Shown: in pieces, positions 1-25,949 of the stretch
Layout of the letters: every line of letters begins with the position of its first letter
How positions within the stretch are numbered: the stretch's first letter is position 1
Program-made: the position numbers and the translations under genes
Notes under the pieces: generated by a model
What the model was told of the DNA's origin: nothing
The model's database searches: none
The model's input: the letters and a program-made list of their open reading frames with translations, nothing else
IMG/VR virus record: IMGVR_UViG_3300016474_000947
Coordinates: 1-25,949 of that record
Strand: one strand, 5' to 3'
Source: a virus
Lineage: Duplodnaviria; Caudoviricetes
Length of the DNA: 25,949 nt

Positions 1-2
1 CT

Positions 3-722
3 CTTATTCCCATTGCAAAGATTGAACAAGCCTTTAATTTGAAACCTAGGAATAAGGAACAAACATTTTCTCTAGATTTGTTGTTTGATCAAAATATTAA
101 ATTGTTGACGCTCGTTGGACCTTCCGGCACAGGTAAAACTTTGCTTGCAATTGCTGCGGCCCTAGAACAACTAAAGGGTCTAGGGGAAGTTCCAAGATAC
201 GAAAAACTAATCGTGACACGTCCAGTTCAACCTCTAGGTAAGGACATAGGGGTTTTGCCAGGAACCTTGGAAGAGAAGATGGAACCTTGGATTGCTCCTA
301 TAAGAGATAATATCAATTTTTTGATGGGTAAAAAGTCATCAGGTAGAAAGAAAATTGCCGATGATCAGAAAAAAACTCCTGATCAATATTATTTGACCTT
401 GATGCAAGAAAAGGGTCTTATTGAAATAGAGGCGATTACTTTCATTAGAGGTAGATCGATACCAAATGCCTTTATCATTATTGATGAATCGCAAAACTTG
501 TCAATGCATGAGTTGAAGACAATTGTTACAAGGGTTGGTGACGGAACAAAAATTGTTCTTACAGGAGACATTGAACAAATTGATAATGTTCACGTAGATG
601 CCTACTCAAATGGATTGACTTATGCAATTGAAAAATTTAAGGATTATCCTATAGCGGGTCACGTTACTTTGTTGAAGGGTGAACGTAGCGAACTGGCTAC
701 AATAGCGAGTAAAATTCTATGA
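3..722 (+). CDS. phoH: PhoH-family ATPase (5'-truncated by the window; possibly the C-terminal part of a PIN-PhoH/YlaK-like protein)
   Basis: Frame is open from nt 3. Walker A GPSGTGKT, plus LIVTRP, RGRSI..FIIIDESQN and TRVG.GTKIVLTGD.EQID motifs typical of PhoH. Ends at TGA. Confidence 0.93.
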   Translation, partial: LIPIAKIEQAFNLKPRNKEQTFSLDLLFDQNIKLLTLVGPSGTGKTLLAIAAALEQLKGLGEVPRYEKLIVTRPVQPLGKDIGVLPGTLEEKMEPWIAPIRDNINFLMGKKSSGRKKIADDQKKTPDQYYLTLMQEKGLIEIEAITFIRGRSIPNAFIIIDESQNLSMHELKTIVTRVGDGTKIVLTGDIEQIDNVHVDAYSNGLTYAIEKFKDYPIAGHVTLLKGERSELATIASKIL

Positions 723-736
723 TTTTGACATATTGT

Positions 737-773
737 GTGGCCGCGATTACGTGGCCACTGTATATTTGTATTT
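737..773 (+). terminator. Probable intrinsic terminator hairpin after phoH
   Basis: Stem GTGGCCGCG (737-745) pairs with CGTGGCCAC (750-758) with one G-U pair, loop ATTA, followed by T-rich TGTATATTTGTATTT. Confidence 0.6.
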
Positions 774-776
774 GAC

Positions 777-1955: not shown

Positions 1956-1958
1956 AAA

Positions 1959-8385: not shown

Positions 8386-10133
8386 TGTCAATTTCACTAA
8401 CTTCCAGAGAAACATACTTCATTGATGTGCCTGAGGTAGAAAATTTTAATGTAAAATTTAGGTATAATTTTTATGTTTCTAATGAACAAATAAGCGATGA
8501 GATAACAGTACCTGATTTCTTGGCAACAAAACAATCAAAGGGTTTCTTTGATCCAGAATACTTTAAACTTTTTAATTTTCATGTTCCCAGATACATGACT
8601 ATTACATGGAAATCACTAAAATTGGGTAACAACATTAGTGATGAAAAGGAAAGTAATAAGCTTGTGACTCCCGATCAAGCAGGCGTATCTAAAAATCTTA
8701 TATCAAAAAATATCGACAAAGTGTTGACAGAAGATGAATTTTCATCTGCAAATTTTTTTGGTATCACATTTCAAGACAGCCAACTCTTTAATAAATTGCA
8801 GAATATGCTCAAATATTCATCTGAAATTGTTTCTGACGTTCCAATGTCAGATAATGATTTTGAGACGATAGCAATGGATTCTTCAACGTTTGGAGCGACT
8901 TATTACAAGACTGGAAAGCAACCTATTACTGGTGTTACTAAAAAATTGTTGGAGTCCGTGAATATTAATACTCAAATTAATTCAAGACACTTGTATGAAA
9001 TTTGTCAAAAAATTTCTGAAGATCCACAATCGCCATATACTGATGATGTGAAACCTTTGATGGATGCAAGTAAAAAATATAAGGATACGCCTGATACTAA
9101 TTTTAATAATTCTGATTATGCACCGGCGATTGATTATATTAGCGTAAGTCCTGCATCATCAAATGGTCAATCTAGGGGAGTTCCACAAGTTGTAGGATAC
9201 ATTATTGACAAATACGAGATTGACGCAAAAAGAAATATCGTTCCTCTAGATCCAATCATAATAGAGAATTCAAGTGTTAATTTTTATGTTGACACAAGGA
9301 TCAAATATAATCACACCTACGTATATTCAATAAGAAGTGTATTGGCAATTAGCGTGCCTGCTATAAATTCAACGAACGGTAAAATGTCAACAATAACTTT
9401 TTTGGTTAGTTCAAAACCATCAGGTAAATTGTGGATATCTACTCTTGAAAATAAGGCACCTCCTCCCCCAGTTGATATAAATTTTGCATGGGATTATGGA
9501 AGACAAAAGTTGATTGTAAATTGGTGCTTTCCAGTAAATCCTCAATATGATATAAAAAGATTTCAAATCTTTAGAAGAAAAAAGATTGAACATCCCTTTC
9601 AACTGATCAAAGAATACAATTTTGATGATTCAGCAGTGAAAATGAATGTTGGTGAATTTCCTGATGAAAAATTGGTAGAACATCTTGAGAATCCTATAAC
9701 GTATTATATAGATGATGATTTTACAAAAGATTCAAAGTACATTTACACCGTTACTTCAATTGATGCGCATGGATTGACATCTAATTACGGAGCACAATTT
9801 GAAATATCATTTGATAGATTTAAGAACATATTGATAAAAAAATTGATTTCTCAAGCAGGCGCTCCCAAACCATATCCAAACATGTATTTGAAAGGAACCG
9901 GATTTGCAAATTTGATGAAAGTTAGTGGTGAATATTCAAAGAAGATGAAAATATATTGTGCGCCACATAACAAAAAATATCTTTATGTAAAGAATAACAA
10001 TAAAGAAGTTTCTCCAATATTTGAAACCGATGCATCTGGAGGTAATTATAAGATTCAAGTTTTGAATCTAGACAATCAAAAAGGAGAGACAATTACAATT
10101 AACATTAAGTCTTCTTCTAATCAAAAAATATTA
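8385..10133 (+). CDS. Fibronectin type III domain-containing virion protein (582 aa if TTA is stop; standard code extends to 10193)
   Basis: ATG in TGATG overlap with SD-like GAGGT at 8374. FN3 pattern APPPP..INFAWD...KRFQIFRR...YIDDD....YIYTVTSIDAHGLTS. First in-frame TTA is at 10131-10133. Confidence 0.7.
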
Positions 10134-10153
10134 ATTATAATTTGTGGTAACTG

Positions 10154-10161
10154 TATACGTA
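10154..10161 (+). promoter_or_regulatory. Variant (TATACGTA) of the putative late promoter TATACTTA
   Basis: One mismatch to the motif at 13321, 21390 and 23421. Ends 18 nt before ATG 10180 and is intergenic only if TTA 10131 is a stop. Confidence 0.45.
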
Positions 10162-10179
10162 ATAAGGAAATGGTGAAAC

Positions 10180-10899
10180 ATGGGATGGCTTGATCACTCA
10201 ACTAACAATATTATCTTGGATGCTGTGTTGACAGATACAGGAAGAGAATTTCTTTCTAGAAACAATGGAGACTTTAGCATAACTAAGTTTGCCCTTGGAG
10301 ATGATGATGTTAACTATAACATTATCAGAAAATATGGTAGAACAGTTGGAAGGGAGAAGATTGAAAAAAATACTCCTATATTCGAGGCTCTAACAAGTGA
10401 TTCTCAAGGTCAAAAATATAAATTGGTTAGCGTTTCAAATCCAAATTTGATAAGGTTGCCCAATATCACCCTAACGGGAACTAACGTTAGCGGTGGTAGC
10501 GTAATTACGCTTAGTACTACCACCTTGACAGGTAAGAGCTCTGCAACTGTAACATTTTCACAAAATCTAAATGCCTCCACACTGTCTATAGATCAAGAAC
10601 TTCAAGATAATATTTACATAGTTGAAGTACCTAATCTATTTTGTGAAATTGCAGGAAATATAAAGGGCACCGTGGATAGCATGCAAAGAGCTACATACAT
10701 GCTTCCTTCTGACGGTTCATTGACACAACAAAAGGGTACAAAGGTAACTTTTACAATAAACGTAAAAGCAATTTCAAATCCCTTGTTCACCGTGTATGGA
10801 AACACTGGGAATAAGACCCAGATAAAGTCTTACATTCGAGTGACTGGTATTAATTCAGGTGCCGTCAAGGATGTTACGCTGATAATTAATAAGGGATAA
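10180..10899 (+). CDS. Putative baseplate/tail structural protein (tail-collar-like N-terminal motif)
   Basis: MGWLD...IILDAVLTDTGREFLS...ITKFALGDDDVNY N-terminus, similar to the 777 gene and to N-termini of phage tail-collar proteins. Ends at TAA. Confidence 0.65.
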   Translation: MGWLDHSTNNIILDAVLTDTGREFLSRNNGDFSITKFALGDDDVNYNIIRKYGRTVGREKIEKNTPIFEALTSDSQGQKYKLVSVSNPNLIRLPNITLTGTNVSGGSVITLSTTTLTGKSSATVTFSQNLNASTLSIDQELQDNIYIVEVPNLFCEIAGNIKGTVDSMQRATYMLPSDGSLTQQKGTKVTFTINVKAISNPLFTVYGNTGNKTQIKSYIRVTGINSGAVKDVTLIINKG

Positions 10900-10953
10900 T
10901 TTTCCTTTGTATAGTTGATTGTTATTTTAAAGATATTCACGGGATCAAGATCA

Positions 10954-12222
10954 ATGGCAATTTTTAAAGACATAGAAGATAATGACATTAAAACAGCAAG
11001 AAGTTTTCTCAATCAACTAATTGATGTTTTGCAGGAAGATATTAGTGGCTCTACATCACGTAGAAAATATCAGGTGTTCGTCACTGGTGGGGTTGGACCT
11101 GGCGTGACAAGCTCCTTGTATCAAACTGTGTACGATCAAGATTTTACCTTGCAAACAGCAAATCCAATTTTTGATATGACTGTTGGAATAAGTGAATATG
11201 GTTCTACTGCGGCTAGCGCGCTTGTTGGATTCGATTCAGTAGGAAAGGAAATATTCCCAAGTTCATCGCTAATGATGAGGGAGAAGTTGGACATATATCG
11301 ACAATTTGCGCAAGCGTTGTTGGGTGGTACGACTTCTGATCATCAATTTAAGGCACCATCATCATCCACTACGGTCTCAGACACGATAGACGTTGCGTTG
11401 TTCATTGCCTTCAAACGTCTTTTTGCACGTGATCAAATAAAGCGTGAAACTTTTGCAATGAAGTTTTATGAGACTGGTTCGGCTGTTAGATCCACAGGAA
11501 ATACTGACGGTCTATTGAGTGACCCACCTCGTGTTGGTCTTTCTGGAATAGATGTTATAGGAAGACCAAATCTATTTGTAACGTCTCTTACGGGATCTAA
11601 AATATACACCGACATTGGTGCAGCATCAGACAAATTGACAGCCATGGGTGGTCAATATGGACATATTGTTGATAGCTCAAACACCAATAGAACAGTGGGT
11701 CTCATGTATTATGATAGAGGTATAGCAGTTCTTGATTTGAAGAAGATCACAAGCGGTTCACAATTCATGTCAGGTGCAATTGATGCAATGCATCCTCTAG
11801 GCACAATTATGTTGGGCGGGACAGGAACTGAAACTGAGAAAAAATCAAAGTTTATCCCAGACTTTGTGGTATCTGCATCAATTGATAATATCGTTGATCA
11901 CATCGCATCATGTAGGTTTAGCTCTGGTTCGCTTTCAGCGATGACGTTCCAAAACGTAACAAACATAAATAGCACTCTCATATTCTGTAGGGCATCCGCA
12001 AACGAATTCAATTATTCATCTAATCCAACTTACACTGACACAGATAATAGGATAGTAGTAATCGATCCAGGACAGGAGGATACACAACAATCATTTACGT
12101 TTGTAACCTCAGTTGGATTGTATAATGCTAATGATGATTTGCTTGCAGTTGCGAAGCTATCGCGTCCTGTTGAGAAATCTTTTGAAAGAGATTTGACCTT
12201 CAGGGTTAGATTGGATTTCTGA
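10954..12222 (+). CDS. Putative baseplate/tail structural protein (tail-collar-like C-terminal motif)
   Basis: ATG 10954 chosen; the extension from 10915 contains in-frame TTA (10927). C-terminus FVTSVGLYNANDDLLAVAKLSRPVEK...FRVRLDF-TGA is shared with the 13338 gene. Confidence 0.65.
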   Translation: MAIFKDIEDNDIKTARSFLNQLIDVLQEDISGSTSRRKYQVFVTGGVGPGVTSSLYQTVYDQDFTLQTANPIFDMTVGISEYGSTAASALVGFDSVGKEIFPSSSLMMREKLDIYRQFAQALLGGTTSDHQFKAPSSSTTVSDTIDVALFIAFKRLFARDQIKRETFAMKFYETGSAVRSTGNTDGLLSDPPRVGLSGIDVIGRPNLFVTSLTGSKIYTDIGAASDKLTAMGGQYGHIVDSSNTNRTVGLMYYDRGIAVLDLKKITSGSQFMSGAIDAMHPLGTIMLGGTGTETEKKSKFIPDFVVSASIDNIVDHIASCRFSSGSLSAMTFQNVTNINSTLIFCRASANEFNYSSNPTYTDTDNRIVVIDPGQEDTQQSFTFVTSVGLYNANDDLLAVAKLSRPVEKSFERDLTFRVRLDF

Positions 12223-12243
12223 AGATTTTACGGTACAATCATT

Positions 12244-12276
12244 AAAAGCGCCTTTTCAAACACGGCGCTTTTTTTT
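12244..12276 (+). terminator. Rho-independent terminator
   Basis: AAAAGCGCC (12244-52) pairs with GGCGCTTTT (12264-72); GC stem followed by a T8 run. Confidence 0.85.
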
Positions 12277-12295
12277 GTGCATAATATATAAAAAT

Positions 12296-13291
12296 ATGAG
12301 AGCTAGAACTTATCAATTGCACGAGACAAGACTGAGACAAATAGTGAATGAAGAAATTCAGCGCAAGCAATTGCTAAGTGAAAATGTTATGGATTTGATA
12401 TCTAAACTTGTTGATCAAGTTCCTGCAATTGCTGATGCAATAAAAAATGTTGATTTGTCAAGCTTCACAATAGGCGATACAACATTTAAGATAGACACTC
12501 AGCTAATTACTGATTTCTATAATCTTGCGGAAAAACCTGTTAAAGGTATCGTAAAAGCAAAAAAGTCCACTGTGTTGAGTAGATTGTTTGATAATGCGTC
12601 AGCTCTTACATTTTGGACCATGATTCTTATGGCATGGTGGATGGGTACATCAATGCTGTTTTATACTTGCATGAAAATAAAAGAATTTTTGGTTGGTAAA
12701 GAAGGCGTTGAATCCGATAGAGAATTGGGTGGTTATAAACCAAAATGGCAACCAGGTATAATACAAAAACTTCTTGGTCCGTTGGTTAGTTTTGGGAAAA
12801 AAATTGATAAAAAATCAGCAGGAGATATTGCGAAAGCTGGCGCTAGAGGCTTTATGATTGGAGGAAAGTCAGGTGCAATTATAGGAATGGGTGAAAAAAT
12901 GATACAAAAATTTGCAGCTGACGGAGATCAAGTAATGCAATCAGAACCGGTTATAGAGCTAATGCAACTTCCTGAAGCCGCAGCAACCCTAAAGGCTGGA
13001 AAAAAACAATTTGATGCATTGCTTAATAAAGCCGAGGAAACAATGCTAGTAAATCAGCAACAATATTCTGGCAAGGGTTCTCCCACAGAAAAAGATCCAA
13101 GAACTCAAGTTCAACCTACCTATAAGGATACAGTTCGAGCTTCCCCCAAGTTTGATGCGGATCGTAGTTCACGAAGAACCAGGGACGGTTCTACAACTCA
13201 ACCAATGCAAACGTATAGACCAGGCGCAAGATCCAAAGAAGAAGAAGCTCCGGTACCAACTAGAAGATCTCGTAAACAAGGACAAGATTGA
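12296..13291 (+). CDS. Hypothetical protein with one hydrophobic/TM segment and Gly-rich helix; possible internal head/ejection protein
   Basis: ATG 12296 lies after the terminator. N-terminal LRQIVNEEI motif, hydrophobic ALTFWTMILMAWWMGTSMLFYTCM, AGARGFMIGGKSGAIIGMG, and a basic disordered tail. Confidence 0.55.
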   Translation: MRARTYQLHETRLRQIVNEEIQRKQLLSENVMDLISKLVDQVPAIADAIKNVDLSSFTIGDTTFKIDTQLITDFYNLAEKPVKGIVKAKKSTVLSRLFDNASALTFWTMILMAWWMGTSMLFYTCMKIKEFLVGKEGVESDRELGGYKPKWQPGIIQKLLGPLVSFGKKIDKKSAGDIAKAGARGFMIGGKSGAIIGMGEKMIQKFAADGDQVMQSEPVIELMQLPEAAATLKAGKKQFDALLNKAEETMLVNQQQYSGKGSPTEKDPRTQVQPTYKDTVRASPKFDADRSSRRTRDGSTTQPMQTYRPGARSKEEEAPVPTRRSRKQGQD

Positions 13292-13320
13292 TTTTATATA
13301 AACCTCGTTTACAAATGTGT

Positions 13321-13328
13321 TATACTTA
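13321..13328 (+). promoter_or_regulatory. Putative late promoter TATACTTA
   Basis: Identical 8-mer in three intergenic gaps just upstream of starts; analogous to the T4 late promoter TATAAATA. Confidence 0.6.
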
Positions 13329-13337
13329 CTGTAAGTT

Positions 13338-15818
13338 ATGTCAATAATCAAGGTTGGACCTGATGATCAAGAGAATTTTACCATCACAATGAACCCGAAG
13401 AGGACCTATGTGTCAAGTTCTTCGGGTGTGACTGGTTCAGTGTATGTTTTTGCTCGACGAAGCAAGATTGAGAAAAACATGGCTCCGTCTTCTGCGTTCA
13501 TTGAAGCAACGCATGATGACGCCGATATTAATGCTGAACTGGCTAGCGTAAAAACCAAATTGTTGTCGAATGGTGGTGTTGGATCAATTGAAGGCGCACT
13601 TGAAAAATATCTAGAAAAAGTAAATCAACAAAATATCTCTGCTAGAAAACTCAAGACCCTGGAGATCATTAGATTTACGCCATCATACACTTTCACAACA
13701 AACACCATGAGAAAGTTGTATGTCAAAGATGTGCTGATGCGTCATTACAGGGTTTCATACCCCACGGCACATTGGGCATACACAAATTATAATAGCATAA
13801 ATTTTTTTACATCATCTACCGTGCCAACGGGTTCAGCACTACTATATCCTAACATTGAAGGTCCTGCTTCACAATTTCATGAAGGTTATGTTTCTGGCAC
13901 ATATTCTCTTAGCGGTGCGTTTTCATTCGATTTCTACATAAATCCCAGATATAAGCAAGATTCTTACGATAAAGAATTTAAAGCAGGAACAATATTTCAT
14001 CTATCATCCAGTTATGCGGTGTCCTTGATAAGCGGATCCGCTAAGGATGAAAATGGAAAAACTATCGGTTATAGATTGCAGTTGCAATTGAGTCATAGTG
14101 CGGGTATTTTGCCTTCTTTGGCAAAACCTGGAAGTTATCCAAATGACCTTGTGTTTCTGTCAAACGACAATTGTTTGACTGGAAATAATTGGCATCATGT
14201 TGTTATTAGGTGGGGAACTAATCTTATCAATGGTGGTACGGGCAGTTTTAACATAGACGGAGAGGATAAAGGTTATTTTGTTGTTCCTTCAGGGACTATA
14301 ACACCCCGTTTGTCAAACGAAGCAGCTCCCGACGTATTGTGTGTTGGCAATTTTTATACTGGTAGAAATACAGGTGTTAACGCACAAGCGTATTTCTTTG
14401 CTAGGGATCCTGCTAAAAGAGATGGTCTTGTTGAATTGATAGATGATGGTTCTACAACAAATGAACCTGCCAATTATTCATTTGATCATCCTTTGAATGC
14501 AGAATTGCACGATTTGGCAATTAAACGTTATTACATGTCAGATCAAGACATTGTGATTTCTTCTTCTACAGGTCCTGCAACGCTTGATGATAATATTGCA
14601 TTCTATTTGCCTCCATTTTTTACTCAAACGTCATCGCTAAGACAAGATGTAAATGGTTATGGAGGTGTTCTTCAAACCCCATTTATAGCCGCTGACGGTA
14701 CAACCACCACACCATACAATGTTTCTATGGCATTTGGTGTTGCTGGTCACTTCATAAACATTGAGAATTATCTAAAAGATTTTGCTTCAAATTCTCACCC
14801 TCGTCTTCATCTAATGACCGGATCGGTGCTTGACACTGGCACGACTCAAGCTTTGTCCGCAAACGAGCATATCTATAACAATCCTTTTAACATAAGGAGA
14901 AATTTGTTGATTATGCCTTGTGATGACGGGCAGTTTAAACCCAACTACTCTTTGCTTGAAGCAGAAGTCAACAGACAAAGCGCTACTGGCGATGATGGGG
15001 TTGAAGATTATTCATTTGTAAATCTTAATAACTTGTTGTCAACTGGATCGTTGTTGTTTGGCACCACTTTTACTGACGTAGAGGGAACTAGCGCCGCATC
15101 TGCTGATCAATTTGTAAAAGACACAATTGGATTTTCACCTGAAGATCCAAGCATTCCTGCTGGGGATGCATATAAAAAATTCATGAATAGCGTCAAGAGA
15201 CAAATAGCAGCAGGAAATTACGCACCTGGAATTTCAACCGATGCACCATTGACAATCTATCAAAGAACCCTTGACCCTTCTTCCGATCAGGTAACTTTCT
15301 TTGACATAAGCAATTTGTATTACGGGAAAAGAATATTGCCAGGTAGCCTAATCATGGTTGATTCTAACGTTAGTGGGTCTGGAGGTACAATGCGTTGGAC
15401 ATTGCGTGATAATGGTTATGGCAACATTTATCGTGCAGACAGTCTTACCAATCACGCAACTTGGAATAGTGTAGGCAATATTTTTTACGATGAAGGGATC
15501 ATCGTGATAAAAAATCCTCACCTATATTTCTTTGGTAAAAATCAATTTGAAATAAGTTTTCGTGGCGAACAAAACATTCATACCCTAAAAATGGAAGTGG
15601 TGGCACCACGAGGTCTAATAAACTCATCATCTAATTCAGGATTTAAGAAATTGCCAGCATCTGGACATATCACTGACACAGACCCCGATTACGTCAACAT
15701 ATCTGGCATCAATTTTCATGATAAAAATTTGAATGTTGTTGCTAAGACACAATTGGCACAACCTATCATGAAACGACATGGTGATAGGATTATGTTTAAG
15801 GTTACTTTGGATTTCTTA
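13338..15818 (+). CDS. Large baseplate/tail protein with LamG/ConA-like domain and tail-collar-like C-terminus (826 aa if TTA is stop; standard code extends to 15944)
   Basis: LamG-like pattern FSFDFYINP...NNWHHVVIRW...FNIDG...LCVGN...LHDLAI. C-terminus KVTLDF matches the paralog's RVRLDF-stop and is followed directly by TTA, whose A begins the next ATG. Confidence 0.7.
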
Positions 15819-16207
15819 TGCCCCGTCGCCGAAAAAAAAGAGGCCATTATCACAGGGGCACTTATGTGTCCCACATTGCGGGTGAGTGTAAGTATCGAAG
15901 TGGGTGGGAAGAAAAGTATATGCGTCACCTTGATTCGAACGTAGACGTGAAAATATGGTCATATGAGAATTTGGTCATACCATACGTCTCTAATGTAAGA
16001 ACCGGCAGGTTGAGGAAATATTATCCTGACTTTTACGTTGAAATGCAAGATGGTCAAAAAATTCTCATTGAGATAAAACCGAGTAAAAAACTAACACAGG
16101 CAATTATAAAAAAGAAAGTTGCCGCAGCACAACAATGGTGTAGTGAACACGGTGTGACTTATAAGATATTGACAGAAATTGAATTGAAAGTTATGGGGAT
16201 TATTTTA
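15818..16207 (+). CDS. Head completion nuclease (T4 gp4-like / TnsA N-terminal PD-(D/E)xK endonuclease)
   Basis: YRSGWE, YYPDF, IEIKP and K..AA..WC....YKILTE.EL motifs. First in-frame TTA at 16205-16207 (standard code ends at 16225). Confidence 0.85.
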
Positions 16208-16238
16208 TCTAACAATTATATGTGATAAAATTGGCTGG

Positions 16239-16799
16239 ATGTCTAAGCTAATATTGGGTCTTGACGTTTCCACATCTTGTACTGGCGTTTGTGTGATTGA
16301 TTCGGAAATTCCACCTGATGATGCTGGAACGCATATCATAAAGCTAGACTACATAGATTTTAAAAAATGCGGCACATTCTTTGAAAAGGCAGATAGGGTG
16401 AAGAATGAGTTGATAAGACACTTTTCTACTATAGGTACCAAACCAATAATATTTGCGTTGGAAGAACCATTGCTTGGTTTTTCTAAGGGAATGTCATCAG
16501 CAGGAACTATCACAACTTTGATGCGTTTTAATGGAATAGTGTCATACATAGGCAGGGAAATATTTGGTATCGATCCAATCTATCAGTCTGCCGCTCACGC
16601 TCGTAAGTTGTGTGGTGTTAAATTGCAAAAAACTGCCATTGCTGGCATGAGTCACAAAGAACAAGTTTTCAAACACATGTCTGAAAACGATCTAAAACAC
16701 ATAACTTGGTCCACGAAGAAAAATGGTCAACCAATTGATGCTTCTCGTGATATGACTGATGCATACGTCATAGCTCGAGCGACATCTTTGAGTTATTTA
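16239..16799 (+). CDS. RuvC-like Holliday junction resolvase
   Basis: ILGLDVSTSCTG, central LEEP, and DMTDAYVIA acidic RNase H-fold motifs. First in-frame TTA at 16797-16799 (standard code ends at 16844). Confidence 0.85.
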
Positions 16800-16836
16800 T
16801 TGTACAAGTTAACTCAAGTATTTAATAATGTTAAAA

Positions 16837-17814
16837 GTGTATAGCCTTACCCAAAAGCTAAGGTTCATTGAATCGGTGTTTGGTAGTGGACGTCTGGCAA
16901 CAAACGGAAAGAATTTTGATGTTAGGTGCCCAATATGTGCACCATCTGATAACAGCAAAAGAAAATTGGCCATTCGTGTTACCGATGACGTGAATCATTG
17001 TTGGACATGCGGTTGGAAATCTCATACTCTTGCGCCTTTGATTAGAAGGTTTGGTACAACGTCGCAGCTCTCAAAATACAGAGAGGAGTTTATGCCTCAA
17101 GGAACAAGAGATGAAAATCTTGAATCTATTGAGGAAAAAAAGTCGCTACATCTACCACAAGATTTTTGCCTTCTCACAAATGCATCCCAATCAGATCCAG
17201 ATGCAAAGGCTGCATGGGCATATCTGAAATCAAGAGGAATAACTCGTAAAGATGCCTGGTATTATAAATTGGGTATATCTAATGAATATCGATGGCGTCG
17301 AAGAATCATTATTCCTTCGTTTGATAGTGAAGGTAATTTGAATTTCTTTGTGGCGAGAAATATTGATTCTGGAGACAAAAGAGCTCGTTATGATGGTCCT
17401 GATGAAGACAAACTACCAATCATTTTCAATGAAATAAACATTGATTGGAAAAGAAAATTGGTGATATGTGAAGGTGCATTTGACGTTATGAAATGTGGTG
17501 AAAATTCTGTACCTTTGTTGGGCTCAGATTTGAATGAACAGTCGAGACTTTTTAATCAGATTCTACTTCACAATACGTCAATTGCCCTTGCTCTTGATGG
17601 TGATATGTGGTATACCAAGACCCCAAGAATAGTAAAAAAAATGCAAGAATATGATGTGAATGTTTCAATTGTTGATGTAAGACAATGGGATGATCCTGGA
17701 AAAATGACAAAGCAACAATTTAAAATTGCGCTTGAAGATGCAATTACTCCTACTTGGGAAGACAATTTTTATAATAAGCTACAACGTGCTTCAGAACTAA
17801 AGATGAGAATGTAA
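16837..17814 (+). CDS. DNA primase (zinc-binding domain + TOPRIM)
   Basis: CPIC...HCWTC zinc finger; ICEGAFD, LDGD and DDPG TOPRIM motifs. Start placed at GTG 16837 because ATG 16828 is followed by TTA; the start is uncertain. Confidence 0.88.
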   Translation: MYSLTQKLRFIESVFGSGRLATNGKNFDVRCPICAPSDNSKRKLAIRVTDDVNHCWTCGWKSHTLAPLIRRFGTTSQLSKYREEFMPQGTRDENLESIEEKKSLHLPQDFCLLTNASQSDPDAKAAWAYLKSRGITRKDAWYYKLGISNEYRWRRRIIIPSFDSEGNLNFFVARNIDSGDKRARYDGPDEDKLPIIFNEINIDWKRKLVICEGAFDVMKCGENSVPLLGSDLNEQSRLFNQILLHNTSIALALDGDMWYTKTPRIVKKMQEYDVNVSIVDVRQWDDPGKMTKQQFKIALEDAITPTWEDNFYNKLQRASELKMRM

Positions 17815-17845
17815 AATATTGGACAATGGGAATAATATCAATAAG

Positions 17846-18496
17846 ATGGTAAAAATTGCTCACATTGCTGATGTTCACTGGCGAGGTCTATCTCGCCATG
17901 ATGAATACAGACAAGTATTTGAATATTTTGTGAAAGATATTAAGAAAAATCAAATAGAACATATTTTCGTGGGTGGTGATATTTTTCACACAAAAACAAC
18001 CGGTCTAAGTCCCGAATACATACAACAACTAACTTGGTGGCTAACCTCAATGTCGGAGGTTGCTGAAGTTCATTTGACTCTCGGCAACCACGATGGTAAT
18101 TTGGTTAATGTGACTCGTCAGGATGCAGTCACACCTGTTGTCGAAGCGCTAGCCAATGATAGAATCCATCTTTATAAAAAGAGTGGAAACTATGAATTCA
18201 CCCCAGGGTATGTTTGGTGCGTTTTTAGTCTATTTGATACAGAAAATTGGGATAAGGTGAAACCCACACCAGGAAAAATTAATATTGCATGTTATCATGG
18301 TCCAGTATGGGGTGCTCGTACCGAAACTGATTGGGTAATTGAAGATGGGATAGGGATTGAATATTTCAATAATTTTGATTTTGCATTTTTGGGCGACATA
18401 CACAAACTTCAATACCTTGGTTATCGGGATGTTGAAATTCTTATTGACGAAGAAGAGTTGGGGAAATATCCTGGTGCTACGATTATTGAGGAGTTA
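17846..18496 (+). CDS. Mre11/SbcD-like metallophosphoesterase, N-terminal fragment (T4 gp47-like)
   Basis: HIADVH, GGDIFH, GNHD, CYHG and LGDIH motifs; lacks the final YPGS motif. In-frame TTA at 18494, TGA at 18503-18505. Confidence 0.85.
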
Positions 18497-18501
18497 CAAA
18501 G

Positions 18502-21078
18502 TTGAAAAAGATTAAAATTAAAACACAAATGCCTTGGATAGCATATCCTGGATCAACTGTTCAACAAAATTATGCAGAAGATCTAAAACATGGTTATCTT
18601 ACGTGGGAAATAAATAACCCTAATGACTTTAGGGTATCATTCAATAATTTGCCAAATCCAAAACCCTTTGTTACTCTAGCATGGGCTGGTGATATTAATG
18701 ACGCACTATCGTTTGCTTCTTCACAACCAACGGGTTCTAGATTTAGAATCAAAAGCAATATCCATATTGGACAACATGACATACATAAGTTGTCGTCTTC
18801 CATAAAAAAAATTGGAGCATCAGAGATAACTTTTAAAATTGATCATCAAATTGATAAAAGTATCGTTTCATCAGGTACCCAAAAAATAGAAAGAAATGAT
18901 CTACGAAATATTGATGTTTTGTTGGGTTTGATAAAGAGTTATCACACTAAATTTAATTTTTCTGATGTAGTGTGGCAAAATGTTACTTCACAGGTAAAAA
19001 ATTACCTGTCTAACGTTATAGGTTCTGAGGACATTATAAGAAACACAAAGTGGACTCTTCGAAGTTTGAATTTTGACAATGTGTTTGCATATGGTGAAGG
19101 TAACGTAATCAATTTTGATAATTTGAATGGTGTGGTTGGAATATTTGGTCCTAATCGAGCAGGAAAATCTTCAATAGTTGGTACCATCATGTACTCCTTG
19201 TTTAATTCATCAGACAGGGGTTCAGTAAAAAATTTGTATGTTTGCAATATTAGAAAGCCATATTGTTACGCAAAAGCAATCATTAATGTAAATGGCACTG
19301 ATTACGTACTAGAAAGACAAACAACTAAACACGAATCAAAGAAGGGCGCAATTAGCGCTCCCACTTCACTTAATGTTTTTAGAATAAATGAAAGTGGTGA
19401 AGCAATTGATCTTGCTGGCGAGCAAAGAAATGACACCGAAAAAGTAATTCGATCGTTGATAGGAAATTCTGATGATTTTTTGCTGACATCGCTTTCTGCA
19501 CAAGGAGAAATAAATCAATTTATTTCACATGGGTCAGCTAAACGTAAGCAAATTCTATCAAGATTTCTCGACCTTGATATTTTTGATAAAATGTATGAGT
19601 TGGCGAATAAAGATGTGAATGCCGTCAAGGCACAACTCAAATCATTTCCAGATAGGGACTGGGATGGTTTGAAACACGAACTAGAAGAAAAAGTTAAAAG
19701 ATTTGATGATGAAATCATTGAAATTAATTCCGCATCTTCAGAATTGGCATACAAACTTGAAGAAGCAAAAATTTCTTTGTCAAGACACACTAATACGTCT
19801 CCTGTGACTGAATCTAACGTCAAAGAACAGTACCAAAAGGTTTTGTTGCTAACAAAGCAACTTGATGAAATTCAAAAGAAAACAAGTTCTATTGTTGAAA
19901 ATATAGAAAAAAATGAATCGAAGATCAAGACGATTGAATCCTTGAAGACTGAAAACGATGTTTCAAACTTGAAAAAAAGATTGCAATCATTGACCGAACT
20001 AGAAAACAGTGTTACAACTTTCACTTACAAATATGAGAAAGAACTTTCAACTCTAAAACAACAGGAAAAATCACTAAAAATTCTAGATGATGTTCCTTGT
20101 GATGATAAATTTCCCAATTGCAAATTTATTAAGGATGCGCATCTAGTGAAAGATAAAATTGCATCACAAAGAACAACAGTAGATTCTATGTTGGAATCTC
20201 TCAATAAGATGTCAACATCTCTTGACACCTTGAAGAGTGAAGGTTTGCGTGATAAATTGGAAAAGATACAAAAATTGCAAGATATGCAAGTAAGGTTGAG
20301 CACTGAAGTTTCCAATGAAAAACTCGAATTGGTGAAACTTGAACATAATAAATCAAAATTGTCTACTGATCTTGATGGTGCAAAAAGTAGACTGAAGAAT
20401 CTTGAAGATGCAATAAAAAATAATGAAAATTCTGAAGTTGTTTCCCTAAGGGAAAAAATAGAAGAATATTCTGTGTCAATTAGAGAACACGATAATAAGA
20501 AAATGAAGGTGGCTAGTGAACGTGGGAAAGCAATGTCAGATGCACAAAAATTGATAGATGAGCAAGAGAAAAGAAATTCTCTTTTTTCTGGAGTTAAATC
20601 AATAGAGTTGATTGCAAATGCCTTTTCTAAAAAAGGAATACCTAATGACATCGTTTCTTCACAATTGCCTATTATCAATGCAGAAATAACAAAAATTCTT
20701 GCAGGCATTGTTGATTTTACAGTTGAACTAGAGGTAGATCAGGAGTCCGATTGGATGGACATTTATATAAATTATGGTGATTCAAAAAGAATTATTGAGC
20801 TAGCAAGTGGAATGGAAAAGATGATCAGCTCTATTGCAATTAGGGTTGCTTTGATCAATATTTCCACGTTGCCTAAAACTGATATGTTTATTATTGATGA
20901 AGGATTTGGTGCGCTGGATGATGCTGGTGTAGAGGCGTGCAATCGTCTATTGACATCTCTAAAGAGATATTTTAAAACAATCTTTGTAATTACACACGTT
21001 GATGGTATCAAAGATTCTGCGGATCACGTAATTGAAATTTCTAAGAATGAAAAAGACGCGAGGGTTTCATATGTTTGA
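18502..21078 (+). CDS. Rad50/SbcC-like ATPase (T4 gp46-like) fused to the C-terminal part of Mre11/SbcD
   Basis: SD GAGGAG at 18488-93 before TTG. N-terminal IAYPGS.VQQNYAE (Mre11 C-part), Walker A GPNRAGKS, coiled coil with two central Cys, signature ASGMEK, Walker B/D-loop FIIDEGFGALD, H-loop ITH. Confidence 0.92.
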   Translation: MKKIKIKTQMPWIAYPGSTVQQNYAEDLKHGYLTWEINNPNDFRVSFNNLPNPKPFVTLAWAGDINDALSFASSQPTGSRFRIKSNIHIGQHDIHKLSSSIKKIGASEITFKIDHQIDKSIVSSGTQKIERNDLRNIDVLLGLIKSYHTKFNFSDVVWQNVTSQVKNYLSNVIGSEDIIRNTKWTLRSLNFDNVFAYGEGNVINFDNLNGVVGIFGPNRAGKSSIVGTIMYSLFNSSDRGSVKNLYVCNIRKPYCYAKAIINVNGTDYVLERQTTKHESKKGAISAPTSLNVFRINESGEAIDLAGEQRNDTEKVIRSLIGNSDDFLLTSLSAQGEINQFISHGSAKRKQILSRFLDLDIFDKMYELANKDVNAVKAQLKSFPDRDWDGLKHELEEKVKRFDDEIIEINSASSELAYKLEEAKISLSRHTNTSPVTESNVKEQYQKVLLLTKQLDEIQKKTSSIVENIEKNESKIKTIESLKTENDVSNLKKRLQSLTELENSVTTFTYKYEKELSTLKQQEKSLKILDDVPCDDKFPNCKFIKDAHLVKDKIASQRTTVDSMLESLNKMSTSLDTLKSEGLRDKLEKIQKLQDMQVRLSTEVSNEKLELVKLEHNKSKLSTDLDGAKSRLKNLEDAIKNNENSEVVSLREKIEEYSVSIREHDNKKMKVASERGKAMSDAQKLIDEQEKRNSLFSGVKSIELIANAFSKKGIPNDIVSSQLPIINAEITKILAGIVDFTVELEVDQESDWMDIYINYGDSKRIIELASGMEKMISSIAIRVALINISTLPKTDMFIIDEGFGALDDAGVEACNRLLTSLKRYFKTIFVITHVDGIKDSADHVIEISKNEKDARVSYV

Positions 21079-21379
21079 AGAAAAATTTGAACCTTATTTT
21101 CGTGATAGAATGATTTGTAATAAGAATGGATATTGCGTAATCATTCCTAAGGATTCACCACAACCAATTCCAATCAATTGCCCCGTGTGTGATTTTTTGT
21201 TGAGATCTAAGGATGATGAAAATTCATGGTACAAATATAATTGTTGTGAAAGATGTTCAACGTATTGGGCAATACCTAGAAAATCGGAATGGGATACAGG
21301 ATGGAGACCTGGAATAGAAGATTTGCAAAAAGAGATAGCCAGACGCCCTCCAATTGCCGTAGATATTAAGATTGAATGA
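21071..21379 (+). CDS. Small zinc-finger protein
   Basis: ATG 21071 overlaps the end of sbcC, with SD-like GAGGG upstream. CPVC...CCERC motifs. Confidence 0.65.
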   Translation: MFEEKFEPYFRDRMICNKNGYCVIIPKDSPQPIPINCPVCDFLLRSKDDENSWYKYNCCERCSTYWAIPRKSEWDTGWRPGIEDLQKEIARRPPIAVDIKIE

Positions 21380-21389
21380 TTTTTTTGAC

Positions 21390-21397
21390 TATACTTA
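21390..21397 (+). promoter_or_regulatory. Putative late promoter TATACTTA
   Basis: Intergenic, upstream of an AGGAG SD and ATG 21414; heads the terminase unit. Confidence 0.6.
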
Positions 21398-21413
21398 GTC
21401 TAGGAGATTCGAT

Positions 21414-21797
21414 ATGGCTCAAGGTAAAATAGACTATAACGCTCTAGGACAAACTATTGATACAACATGGGGAAGGGCCTCAACACCAAAAACTGCTAGT
21501 TATTCTGTTAAATTTTCAATGCAAGGTGATAAATTGATCGCCTCATATGCAGCTATTGTTAATTTTGGTACCGAAAGAGAAATGATTATGATGAAAAGAT
21601 CATATGCCGAGGAATCGATCTCAATCATCTCTGAGGCAATTAAGGGAATTAAGGCAAATTACAAACAAATTTCTGGTGATAGTCTTTCTACAAAAGAAGT
21701 TGCCACGTCAGATTCTTTGGAAATAATTGGTTACGGAGTACACAATCCTAAAAGAACGGCGTATTATAGAAGAAAGACAGTTTTTGAGCTCAGCTTA
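21414..21797 (+). CDS. Hypothetical protein upstream of terminase (127 aa if TTA is stop; standard code extends to 21812)
   Basis: Strong SD AGGAG. Ends YYRRKTVFELS followed by TTA, whose A starts the terminase ATG (TTATG). Confidence 0.7.
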
Positions 21798-23416
21798 TGT
21801 CAGGACCTATAAATAGAGAAGATCAAGTTAAGGAAATATTGAATTGTGGTAAGGATGCTGTGTATTTCATGCGTAATTACGCAAAAATTCAGCATCCTAA
21901 GAGGGGTCTTATACCCTTTGAAACTTACAAATTTCAGGATGAGTGCGTAAGCGAATTTGAAAAAAATAGATTTAACATAGTTCTTAAATCTAGACAATTG
22001 GGTTTGAGCACAGTTACTGCCGCATATGCAGTTTGGTATGCAATCTTCAAGAAAGATAAAAACATCTTGATCATTGCAACTAAACTTCAAACGGCAATGA
22101 ATTTCATCAAGAAAGTAAAAACCATTCTAGATGGTTTGCCAAAATGGCTGCTACTCACAAAATTTGAACCAACAAAACAACAAGTTAGTTTTTCAAATGG
22201 TTCAACTATAACGGCAGTACCAACCAGTCCAGACGCAGGTAGATCAGAGGCATTGTCACTACTCATAGTTGATGAGGCAGCATTTATTCGTGATTTTGAA
22301 GAAATCTGGACTGGTCTCTACCCCACCATTTCAACAGGTGGCAGCGCGATCATCATTTCAACTCCAAATGGTGTTGGTGGAACTTACTATACACTTTGGA
22401 CTGATGCTGTTGCTCAAGTAAATGAATTCAATCCTATAAATCTTCCATGGCACGTTCACCCAGAACACAATCAAGAGTGGTTCAATAAAGAAACTAGGAA
22501 CCTTCCCAAGAGAAAAGTTGCTCAAGAATTTTTGTGCGATTTCATATCTTCTGGCGATACATTCCTTCAACCTTCAGAGATGGACTATTTGAGAGATATG
22601 ATTGATCAACCTATACGAAAAGAAGGACCAACTTCTGGCGTGTGGATATGGTCTGATCCTGAACCAAATAAGAAATATGTCATTTCGGCTGACGTTGCTC
22701 GCGGTGACGGTAATGATTATTCAACATTCCATGTTATAGACAATAATGATTGTGAAGTTGTGGCGGAGTATATGGGAAAGCTACCTCCCGACAAACTAGC
22801 TGATCTTCTTGCCGAATATGGAAAAATTTATAATAACGCCCTGATATGTCCGGAAAGAAACACATTTGGATATTTTACGTGTGTCAAATTGAGGGACATG
22901 GGATATAAACGTCTGTATTACAGAAATACATCAGGTGATTTGTTTGAGTACATATCAAACGATCCAGATGCGGTGCCTGGATTTGAAACACAAGGAAACA
23001 CAAGACCACAAATACTTGCAAAACTTGAAGAAGTAATTAGAAATAGAATTATAAAAATTTATTCTCAAAGGTTTTATGATCAAATGCAGGCCTTTATTTG
23101 GAATGGATCAAAGGCGCAAGCAACAAAAGATGCACACGATGATTTGATTCTAAGTTTGGCAATCGGTATTTGGTTGAATAACGGTGGTTCTTCAACGGGT
23201 GAACAAGGCAAAGAATTTGCCATGGCAATGTTGAAAGCAACTAAACTAGACAGAAGAGATTCAAATCAAATGCCAGGTGATATTGCTTCAGCACAACCTT
23301 TGGTCAATCCTAACATTAGAGGACACTCTTACAATCCACAAAATGTTCACAAACCTAGGGATCCATCACAAGTGAAACATGTAGATGTTTCAGACTTTAG
23401 TTGGCTTCTTCATTGA
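21797..23416 (+). CDS. terL: Terminase large subunit (T4 gp17-like)
   Basis: Walker A-like KSRQLGLST, Walker B LIVDEAAFI, STPNG coupling motif, nuclease motifs ADVARGDGNDYS and HDDL. Confidence 0.95.
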   Translation: MSGPINREDQVKEILNCGKDAVYFMRNYAKIQHPKRGLIPFETYKFQDECVSEFEKNRFNIVLKSRQLGLSTVTAAYAVWYAIFKKDKNILIIATKLQTAMNFIKKVKTILDGLPKWLLLTKFEPTKQQVSFSNGSTITAVPTSPDAGRSEALSLLIVDEAAFIRDFEEIWTGLYPTISTGGSAIIISTPNGVGGTYYTLWTDAVAQVNEFNPINLPWHVHPEHNQEWFNKETRNLPKRKVAQEFLCDFISSGDTFLQPSEMDYLRDMIDQPIRKEGPTSGVWIWSDPEPNKKYVISADVARGDGNDYSTFHVIDNNDCEVVAEYMGKLPPDKLADLLAEYGKIYNNALICPERNTFGYFTCVKLRDMGYKRLYYRNTSGDLFEYISNDPDAVPGFETQGNTRPQILAKLEEVIRNRIIKIYSQRFYDQMQAFIWNGSKAQATKDAHDDLILSLAIGIWLNNGGSSTGEQGKEFAMAMLKATKLDRRDSNQMPGDIASAQPLVNPNIRGHSYNPQNVHKPRDPSQVKHVDVSDFSWLLH

Positions 23417-23420
23417 TGGC

Positions 23421-23428
23421 TATACTTA
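23421..23428 (+). promoter_or_regulatory. Putative late promoter TATACTTA
   Basis: Intergenic, immediately after the terL stop and upstream of ATG 23450. Confidence 0.6.
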
Positions 23429-23449
23429 TTATGCATAGAAGGTTTAGCA

Positions 23450-23761
23450 ATGGCAAATAAATTGACTCTAGCAAATCTAAGAAAAATTATCTCAGAAGAA
23501 ATTAGCAACATCAATGAAGAAGTTGATCTTGCGGCTGAAAATGATGTATTCAATACCGCTGGTAAATTGTTGATGGCGATAGGCGCATTTAAAGAAAATG
23601 CAAATCCTAATATGGTCTCAGCAATATCTGCAGATCTTGAAGATCTTGAAACTCACCTTAAAAATATGAGAAGCGCTCCGAGCCAATACGTGGTATCAAC
23701 GAACGAAAAAAGCGTAAAGACCGTTTCTTTGAAACCTGTAAAAAAAGATCGGGTGATGTGA
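23450..23761 (+). CDS. Small helical protein, putative prohead core/internal head protein
   Basis: 103 aa between terL and portal. N-terminal KLTLANLRKIISEEI motif resembles that of the 12296 gene. Confidence 0.6.
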   Translation: MANKLTLANLRKIISEEISNINEEVDLAAENDVFNTAGKLLMAIGAFKENANPNMVSAISADLEDLETHLKNMRSAPSQYVVSTNEKSVKTVSLKPVKKDRVM

Positions 23762-23835
23762 CTCAGTACCTATACGAAACATTTGCAAATTTTAGTATGA
23801 GCTAAGAGCTTAGCCTAAAATAGGCAGGCAATACT

Positions 23836-25860
23836 ATGGCAACAAAAAAAGACAAACCAGATAACAACAATCTATTTAGGCGCCTCACCAAACTGTTCCG
23901 TAGTGGTCCTGTCATCAAAAAGAAGATCAGGACCATTGATACAACAATAGCCGTTGCAGATAAGACAAAATCTTCTGGTGCTTTGTTGTTTCAAAAGTCG
24001 TTGGCGCCTACTTACGCGACAATAACCGCTAACGCTTATAATCTTTCTGAACGCTTGATGAGATATCAAGATTTTCAAGAAATGGAGTACACACCTGAAA
24101 TCGCGGCCGCTCTTGACATCTATGCAGATGAAACTTGTGCGCAGGATGAGAAAGGTCGAGTTCTTCACATATATTCTGACAATGAGAAGGTAAAAGAGAT
24201 TCTTGAGGATCTATTTTATAACACTCTCAACGTTGAATTTAATCTGCGTAGTTGGGCTCGAAATCTCGTGAAGTATGGAGATTTCTTTCTTTATAATGAC
24301 GTTTCACCAGATTATGGTGTGGTGTCAGCATTCCCAGTCCCGGTGAATGAAATTGAAAGAGAGGAAAATTATGATAGGGAAGATCCATTTGCCGTCAGGT
24401 ATAGGTGGGTCACCCTAGGTAATAGGGTTCTTGAAAATTGGGAGATAACTCACTTTAGGCTTCTTGGAAATGATATGTTTTTGCCTTATGGTTCTTCTGT
24501 CATTGAACCCGCAAGAAGAATATGGAGGCAATTGATCCTTATTGAGGATGCGATGTTGGTGTACAGGGTCGTTCGTGCTCCCGAACGTCGTGTTTTTTAC
24601 ATTGATGTTGCTAACATTCCTGCAGCGGAAGTTCCAATGTATGTTGAGGAACAAAGAAAAAATCTACGCACGAATCAAGTCATTGATAGAACAACAGGTA
24701 GAGTGGATCTTAGATATAATCCTTTGTCTGTTGATGAAGATTACTTCATTCCAGTCAGAGGAACTGACACTGGTACTAAAATTGAAACTCTTGCTGGCGG
24801 ACAAAATGCCGCAGCAGTAGAGGACGTTGCTTACATACAAAAGAAACTGTTTGCTGCGCTTAAGATTCCACGTGCTTATTTGGGATATGACGAAATGTTG
24901 TCATCAAAGGCAACACTAGCCCAAGAAGATATTAGATTCTCTAGGACAATAAACGTAATACAAAAAGTAATGTTGGCGGAGCTTAATAAGCTTGCTATCA
25001 TACACCTTTATGCTCATGGATTTGAATCTGAAGATTTGCAAAATTTTACTCTTAGATTGTCAAACCCATCAACGGTTGCTCAACAACAAAAGCTTGAGCT
25101 ATGGAGAACCAAATTTGAAATTGGTGGTTCTGCACCAGAAGGCTATGTAAATAAAGATTTCATTAGAAAAGAAATTTGGGGCCTAAATGATGATGAGTGT
25201 AAGAATATTGATAGAAATAGGATGAAAGACAAGGTTGTTGACGCTGCCGTTGAGTCTGCAACATCTGAAGGGGGCGGTGAATCAGGCGGTGAAGGTGGTG
25301 GAGGCGGATTGTTTGGTGGCGGCGGCGGAGGAGGCGAAGAGGAAGAAACCGAAGGTGGTGAGGAGACTTCTGGTGAGGAAAATGCGGGAGAAACGCCAGG
25401 CGAGGAGACTGATGACAATCTACAACTATTGACTGCGGTTGATGATCATGATGATGATGAAACATTTTCAATAAAATTTGATCCAACACAAGTTGAAGTT
25501 CCAATAAAGGCGCAAAGGCAACTAGATAAGGCCTTGTACAATAGAAGTCGACGTAGGAATCATGGTGCATCAAAAACTCATATGCCTGATTTTGCAAAAA
25601 TGACGTCAACAGATAATAGAGCGATGCAAGATCCTTATGATAATGATTGGTTGAAATCTGTAGTTAGTAATCCGTTCGGAGAAAGCAAAGAATATCATAG
25701 GACAAATTTGCCTCCCGATCTACAATCGATGTTGGGTAACTGGAGCAAGAAGCATCAAAGAAATACTTCTGATTCAAAAATATTGTCCGAATCTGAAAAT
25801 ATTGTTGATGAATTTTCAAAAGGAGACGAAAATCATCTATATATTGATAAGGATAAATGA
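23836..25860 (+). CDS. Portal protein (T4 gp20-like) with acidic/Gly-rich C-terminal extension
   Basis: MEYTPEIAAALDIYADE, LIEDAMLVYRVVRAPERRVFYIDV, EDYFIPVRG, IETLAGG and LFAALKIP motifs, characteristic of gp20-type portals. Confidence 0.95.
   Translation: MATKKDKPDNNNLFRRLTKLFRSGPVIKKKIRTIDTTIAVADKTKSSGALLFQKSLAPTYATITANAYNLSERLMRYQDFQEMEYTPEIAAALDIYADETCAQDEKGRVLHIYSDNEKVKEILEDLFYNTLNVEFNLRSWARNLVKYGDFFLYNDVSPDYGVVSAFPVPVNEIEREENYDREDPFAVRYRWVTLGNRVLENWEITHFRLLGNDMFLPYGSSVIEPARRIWRQLILIEDAMLVYRVVRAPERRVFYIDVANIPAAEVPMYVEEQRKNLRTNQVIDRTTGRVDLRYNPLSVDEDYFIPVRGTDTGTKIETLAGGQNAAAVEDVAYIQKKLFAALKIPRAYLGYDEMLSSKATLAQEDIRFSRTINVIQKVMLAELNKLAIIHLYAHGFESEDLQNFTLRLSNPSTVAQQQKLELWRTKFEIGGSAPEGYVNKDFIRKEIWGLNDDECKNIDRNRMKDKVVDAAVESATSEGGGESGGEGGGGGLFGGGGGGGEEEETEGGEETSGEENAGETPGEETDDNLQLLTAVDDHDDDETFSIKFDPTQVEVPIKAQRQLDKALYNRSRRRNHGASKTHMPDFAKMTSTDNRAMQDPYDNDWLKSVVSNPFGESKEYHRTNLPPDLQSMLGNWSKKHQRNTSDSKILSESENIVDEFSKGDENHLYIDKDK
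25261..25460 (+). repeat. Low-complexity GGN/GAR-rich coding tract (poly-Gly, Glu/Asp) in the portal
   Basis: Encodes EGGGESGGEGGGGGLFGGGGGGGEEEETEGGEETSGEE...DDHDDDE. Confidence 0.8.
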
Positions 25861-25909
25861 TTGCGTACCTACCTCGCATATTCACTAGGTAAGAGAAACG
25901 TTGACCAAA

Positions 25910-25949
25910 ATGTCGAAGTCAAATTCACACAATAAGAAAAGAAACACCG
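25910..25949 (+). CDS. Start of the next gene (3'-truncated), MSKSNSHNKKRNT...
   Basis: ATG 25910 is open to the window end, downstream of the portal. Too short to assign a function. Confidence 0.55.
   Translation, partial: MSKSNSHNKKRNT

Follow-up and report, generated by a model that had tools for sequence, protein, structure and literature searches.

The window analysed here is the entire virus record IMGVR_UViG_3300016474_000947 (25,949 bases, 35% GC; Duplodnaviria, Caudoviricetes), a single 26-kb metagenomic contig, and the feature in question is the codon TTA (UUA), which a preliminary description made from the letters had proposed to act as a stop codon. The source phage is uncultured, freshwater, and T4-like, and its 19 genes are all encoded on the + strand. 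Based on PHROG family matches, the T4-like gene set comprises PhoH, primase, SbcC/D, RuvC-like, terminase, and portal genes; the best cultured matches of the terminase large subunit have 39–43% identity, the 39% match being a Flavobacterium phage. The features are given below with predicted TTA stops counted as gene ends (aa, amino acids).

3..722, + strand: PhoH-like ATPase (PHROG 2765), 5′ end cut off, TGA stop, 0 internal TTA
777–1955 (TGA stop), 1959–4490 (TAA stop), 4483–8385 (TGA stop), + strand: three large genes without family matches, 0 internal TTA in 2,535 codons
8382–10133, + strand: virion-region gene, function not assigned, 583 aa, predicted TTA stop 10131..10133
10180..13291, + strand: genes 10180–10899 (TAA stop), 10954–12222 (TGA stop), and 12296–13291 (TGA stop), with TTAs at 10927, 12206, and 12242 upstream of starts
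13338–15818, + strand: LamG-like virion protein family, 826 aa, predicted TTA stop 15816..15818, TTATG overlap with the next ATG
15818–16207, + strand: TnsA-like endonuclease / PHROG head closure, 129 aa, predicted TTA stop 16205..16207
16239–16799, + strand: RuvC-like resolvase, 186 aa, predicted TTA stop 16797..16799
16837..17814, + strand: DNA primase (PHROG 47), TAA stop, start most likely GTG 16837, after TTA 16831
17846–18496, + strand: SbcD-like nuclease, 216 aa, predicted TTA stop 18494..18496
18502..21379, + strand: SbcC-like ATPase 18502–21078 (PHROG 77) and small gene 21071–21379, both with TGA stop
21414–21797, + strand: 127-aa gene without family, predicted TTA stop 21795..21797, TTATG overlap with the terminase ATG
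21797..23416, + strand: T4-type terminase large subunit (PHROG 2), TGA stop
23450..25860, + strand: small gene 23450–23761 and T4-type portal 23836–25860 (PHROG 213), both with TGA stop

Protein cluster matches of gene 13338–15818 in Atlas are 832–842 aa long, and no usable Atlas match was obtained for the 127-aa gene 21414–21797. Genes 10954–12222 and 13338–15818 are paralogs with a common C-terminal LDF motif, the first ended by TGA and the second by TTA.

With TTA counted as a stop, none of the 8,416 codons in the 19 genes was TTA, a count that spans 26 kb of phage genome only and is unaffected by one gene having been counted from one codon upstream of its ATG. The 619 internal leucine (Leu) codons were TTG (273), CTT (156), CTA (127), CTC (34), and CTG (29); internal TAG, TGA, and TAA were likewise absent, and the genes ended in TGA (10), TTA (6), TAA (3), or TAG (0). 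The trinucleotide TTA occurred 424 times in the remaining two frames of the same genes (284 + 140). Internal TTA had a median of 30 per 1,000 codons (minimum 8.8) in 38 related loci of 33–38% GC, from which about 223, and at least 65, would be expected in the window. Among 282 aligned columns in which TTA is used by three or more relatives, the window had TTA in none and a different Leu codon in 183. The TTA of relatives is replaced by TTG and CTN; TTG is the top Leu codon and TCA occurs at 34 per 1,000 codons, i.e., both are ordinary sense codons, and neither UCA nor any Leu codon besides UUA has changed in meaning. All nine TTA coordinates of the preliminary description were correct, and its statement that TTA is never internal, being found only before starts or at or near gene ends, was borne out when in-frame TTA was counted by position in the gene: additional in-frame TTAs lie before starts (for example 4471, 12206, 12242, 16822, 23426–23444) or after the stop at 16797 (16809), and thus outside genes as well. 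TAG ends 0 of the 19 genes and TGA is the most frequent stop despite the 35% GC, a bias also present in the TTA-using record G004, which hints at a host dominated by release factor 2 (RF2) and probably GC-rich.

The six terminal TTAs were compared with the stops of homologs, with TTA-using relatives as the reference; as the homolog loci share ancestry and are in part redundant, their numbers indicate that a column is conserved and do not represent independent trials. Homologs stop exactly at the TTA in 81 loci for 15816 (none at the table-11 stop 42 codons downstream), in 81 loci for 16205, and in 119 loci for 21795. For 10131, the homolog stops are exact in 2 loci and within three codons in 11, with none at the table-11 stop 20 codons downstream, and a stop at this TTA abolishes a 14-nucleotide (nt) overlap with the following gene. 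For 16797, one locus is exact and 58 are within three codons, and a second TTA at 16809 is also near homolog stops. For 18494, no locus is exact and 16 are within three codons, versus 7 within three codons of the TGA three codons downstream; apart from this gene, no homologs end near the table-11 stop. The homolog alignment suggested in the preliminary description therefore placed six of six terminal TTAs on or beside stop columns, three of them exactly (81–119 loci) and one weakly. TTATG stop-start overlaps would be formed at two sites (15816, 21795), and the reading of TTA as stop eliminates overlaps of up to 127 nt, the readthrough extensions of the six genes being 2–41 aa long. Re-calling genes with TTA added as a stop, likewise suggested there, cost no coding coverage (0.977 with table 11, 0.979 with TTA).

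Contigs from run X1, possibly the source of the record, had 0 differences from the window and were the only ones to cover 10131 among the listed pieces. Contigs from separate studies covered 15816, 16797, and 18494 (X2) as well as 16205 (X5) with 0 alternative letters, and 21795 is contained in an X2 contig bearing 1 unlisted difference. A 1-nt insertion directly behind the TTA at 16797 (position 16800) in X2, X3, and X5 alters the supposed extension, and X3 and X5 also lack one nucleotide at 16833, which would break the frame of ATG 16828 and spare that of GTG 16837; both indels would disturb the table-11 reading and not the TTA-stop reading. The phage is present in freshwater, reservoir, lagoon, and aquaculture samples. 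The caveat of an artefact raised with the original proposal could thus be checked: because contigs of three other studies retain four sites (15816, 16205, 16797, and 18494 in X2/X5), the pattern is not an assembly artefact.

Four further IMG/VR phage lineages share the TTA-stop pattern, the set consisting of the window, the near-identical G002 and G007 (45% GC), G003/L271 (49%), L018 (36%), and G006 (47%). A pattern search for the capsid end followed by TTA returned four viral stretches and one metagenomic stretch; TTA terminates the capsid gene of G002, G003, G006, and G007, whose relatives have TGA, TAA, or TAG there. TTAs were located at homolog stops in 10 genes of G002, 8 of G007, 3 of G003, 4 of L018, and 5 of G006 (6 in the window), and the few TTAs scored as inside lie before start codons or in open reading frames of the opposite strand, compared with 93 inside aligned blocks in the control G004. 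Adding TTA as a stop changed gene coverage from 0.910 to 0.905 in G002, from 0.926 to 0.933 in G007, and from 0.895 to 0.490 in G004. In G002 (104 kb), TTA closes 36 of 100 called genes, including those for Clp protease, Hc1-like protein, sigma-70 region 4, PhoH, HD-domain protein, major capsid, sheath, and lysin; there is no early/late split, as regulatory, DNA-metabolism, and virion genes are affected alike (timing inferred from gene family). The G002 homolog of the small gene 23450–23761 also ends in TTA, where readthrough would fuse it to the portal. When five records were pooled, backup stops within three codons followed 6 of 51 TTA and 12 of 64 TGA ends, i.e., without excess; 11 of 51 TTA stops overlapped an ATG, and only in 18 of 51 did the next base create a +1-frame stop.

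TTA was lacking in 4 of 80 terminase-related loci. A quick terminase tree of 27 rows picked among the loci required four changes of the trait, and a one-clade topology was rejected by the approximately unbiased (AU) test (p-AU 0.0076); the capsid tree also sets G006 apart. Among PhoH homologs, 2 of 120 run past the conserved end with a Leu-initial extension, and such extensions starting in Leu may be a signature of further TTA-stop cases. No clear new AT-rich case was found among 73 primase loci. The trait is rare. The GC-rich, TTA-poor records G009, G413, G416, and G417 were considered as recoded and rejected, TTA being a rare Leu codon there. A related phage of 33% GC (L259, L260) has 228 TTG and 53 TTA codons and may represent a transitional state in which TTA is being lost or regained.

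As far as can be tested from sequence, the code of the window is that of NCBI table 23, which is used in Thraustochytrium and labyrinthulean mitochondria and has UUA as a stop on an otherwise bacterial-type code, with UUA only at gene ends. Table 23 differs in belonging to an organelle genome with a nucleus-encoded mtRF2a carrying a Ser204 change (PMC12574857), whereas the window belongs to a tailed phage of bacteria. The same paper describes two organellar RF2 lineages that terminate at UUA and in which Ser204 was independently replaced by Ala, Gly, or Cys. Leu-to-stop changes based on the same kind of evidence, a codon confined to positions where homologs stop, are also described there for peDinoflagellate plastids (UUA/UCA stops) and Marsupiomonadales mitochondria (UUA/UUG stops), in which, however, UCA or UUG became stops too, whereas TCA and TTG remain sense codons in the window. 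The plastid case was called the first sense-to-stop change outside mitochondria in the accessible part of that 2025 paper, and a term search of the available text of a 2026 paper and survey on a prokaryotic translation-table tool gave no mention of TTA or UUA (PMC13695967). In stop-to-sense recoded phages (codes 15, 4, and 25), the code likewise differs between close relatives, and phages with code 25 have been proposed to share that code with their hosts, the kind of model also preferred for the window (10.1101/2021.08.26.457843). Their change runs in the opposite direction; the window is sense-to-stop, with no drop in coding density, no in-frame TAG or TGA, and no late-gene bias. Rare UUA in Streptomyces, together with phage bypassing, is a further case in which coding sequences avoid the codon and it serves as a signal, but it stays Leu inside genes (PMC10732093, as far as its text was available), whereas UUA in the window is terminal only and the genome has 35% GC. 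No report of a UUA stop in phages or bacteria was found in the literature searched, which left most subscription papers outside its coverage; the published cases it contained are mitochondria and plastids.

The closest long relative of the window is the phage G001 (309 kb, 91% complete), which encodes an RF1-like gene and yields 49 tRNA calls, with Leu anticodons CAG, TAG, and CAA present and TAA absent. TTA accounts for 12 of its 4,478 Leu codons, at conserved Leu sites and once inside the release factor (RF) gene, and no TTA stops were found in its core genes. The G001 RF carries PPT and QTS/HTS motifs as in the RFs of TTA-using phages. It was rejected as the cause of TTA stops, given the Leu-TTA at conserved sites, the core genes without TTA stops, and motifs common to 80 RF loci, with many TTA-rich phages among them. 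The gene (L081:1453–2122, − strand) does not encode the N-terminal domain and is interrupted by a +1 frameshift site of the prfB type (AGGGGT-CTT-TGA); comparable CTT-stop sites occur in roughly 35 of the 80 phage RF loci, which probably makes the expression of phage RFs responsive to the amount of host RF. The in-frame TTA in the G001 RF gene would switch the RF off on a TTA-stop host. Odd tRNAs were noted in G001 (288775–288926, 228801–228949, and 257230–257317): two have non-canonical anticodon loops (called tta and aat), two carry a CUA anticodon, and one is an 88-nt tRNA(TAC) whose variable arm is long. G001 and G413 have hardly any TTA as stop or as Leu codon, the few internal ones being mostly in homing endonucleases and accessory genes; such phages may be indifferent to the code, or may have come back recently from a TTA-stop host.

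Searching for an RF homolog and for a missing tRNA-Leu(UAA), as outlined in the preliminary description, revealed no tRNA and no RF gene within the 26-kb window. No tRNA was present in the TTA-stop fragments scanned. A search for PF00472 in 15 virus records matched only G001, G416, and G417, none of which is TTA-stop; the TTA-stop records searched are 2–29% complete, which gives their lack of a match little weight. By offset to the 365-residue RF2 chain 2ihr, organellar Ser204 probably corresponds to the Ser of RRHTS. Two patterns for IMG/VR RFs with Ala or Gly at this column gave no match, and the Cys pattern gave one, in an unrelated provirus that is GC-rich (L391:7830–8168, − strand). This match is an RF2 fragment of 112 aa with the codon-reading region (SPF, RRHTCF) and without the GGQ domain, and could be a decoy or termination inhibitor.

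That TTA is a stop codon in the window phage is, judging from its genes, very likely, and the original proposal that TTA acts as a stop gains support from the stop columns, the TTATG overlaps, the unchanged coverage, and several independent phage records. Peptide release at UUA by ribosomes is the most likely outcome of what the DNA indicates. We assign a probability of roughly 0.7 to the fuller reading that TTA is a true fourth stop, probably decoded by the host translation system via an RF2 mechanism. The wording "this phage or its host" had left the agent undecided, and the scattered clades and the range of gene kinds now lean towards the host as the one to read TTA as stop. A host code rather than a phage invention is suggested because the TTA-stop phages are not one clade, and because TTA closes all gene kinds in G002, where a code switch in mid-infection would spare early genes; such scatter would be expected if phages had adapted several times to a recoded host, a scenario put forward for code-25 phages. 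By analogy with organelles, such a host would have lost tRNA-Leu(UAA) and relaxed the second-position check of RF2 (Ser204 to Ala, Gly, or Cys), so that RF2 would read UGA, UAA, and UUA. Phages moving onto this host would purge internal TTA, mostly to TTG, CTT, or CTA, and would acquire TTA stops, which a single substitution can produce from TGA or TAA.

Several points weigh against this reading. The host part draws on phage records, and the most complete TTA-stop record is G002 at 29%, so that a phage-encoded factor is conceivable. A search of 185,579 GTDB genomes for the end of ribosomal protein S9 followed by TTA gave two matches, both in TTA-using genomes, although this is a weak test of one gene end with an exact motif. 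The site at 18494 is the weakest of the six, with a homolog fit only slightly above that of the nearby TGA; the AU test derives from a quick tree in which G006 sits on a long branch; and G001, with about a dozen internal Leu-TTAs, is not a TTA-stop phage, so that the trait is labile even between sisters. Further host searches added little: a short RF2-variant pattern gave chance-level matches, the same as the control, in 401 genomes of one phylum (that of a Clostridia metagenome-assembled genome), probably the wrong phylum, and G001 GroEL, sigma factor, and transfer-messenger RNA (tmRNA), the PhoH of the window, and the G002 Hc1-like protein gave no usable host taxon. The tmRNA tag may resemble those of myxobacteria, for which no supporting paper was found, and no myxobacterial RF2 was detected among 56 plasmid-collection records.

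An alternative is that the phage imposes the TTA stop on a standard-code host by its own altered RF and by destroying the host tRNA-Leu(UAA). RFs and large tRNA sets do occur in jumbo phages of this type, as in G001, and gut phages with recoded TAG or TGA are proposed to change the code of hosts that otherwise use the standard one (10.1101/2021.08.26.457843). We consider this unlikely, since the RF motifs of G001 match those of TTA-using phages and its RF gene has an internal TTA, no viral RF with Ala or Gly at Ser204 was found and the lone Cys match is the fragment described above, putative early genes are TTA-closed as well, and repeated invention in separate clades would be required. Release at UUA might instead follow from the codon being unassigned and "hungry" in the host, with ribosome rescue of the ArfB or tmRNA type, or slippage, ending translation. 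This would fit the avoidance of TTA in both roles by G001 and G413, as expected where UUA is poorly decoded. However, the major capsid gene is TTA-ended in four records, about a third of G002 genes end in TTA, TTATG overlaps occur, neither backup nor +1-frame stops are in excess, and rescue by tmRNA would tag the products for degradation, which renders this explanation improbable despite the regulated UUA of Streptomyces and its use by a phage for bypassing (PMC10732093, available text).

Were TTA still an extremely rare Leu codon, the six genes would bear C-terminal extensions; these would be short, and TTA is indeed a rare Leu codon in the sister G001. All six sites, however, lie within a few codons of homolog stops, for which the rough chance is (171/8416)^6, i.e., about 1e-10, and readthrough would produce the 127-nt overlap, the gene fusions in G002, and an extension broken by a common indel, so that we give this idea very little credence. 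An assembly, sequencing, or editing artefact, conceivable for a single 26-kb metagenomic contig, is refuted as far as the contigs allow by the identical X1 contigs, the four sites kept in other studies, and the agreement of the independent IMG/VR and JGI records.

A UUA stop in bacteria or phages, if true, would extend sense-to-stop code changes to prokaryotes. It is probable, in our view, that a free-living bacterial lineage with an RF2-changed UUA stop represents the first such change outside organelles, that unrelated phage clades matched it independently, and that sisters such as G001 and G413 may cross the code barrier. This kind of recoding would be invisible to current tools: density-based code detection misses a TTA stop because coding density is not lowered, and proteins are annotated a few residues too long or fused. 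The code would act as a natural genetic firewall between hosts and phages, and as a marker linking uncultured phages to an uncultured host. It would furthermore allow the reading of the second stop-codon base by RF2 to be tested directly, and would be a natural example of a code that has dispensed with a sense codon, a point of relevance to genome recoding.

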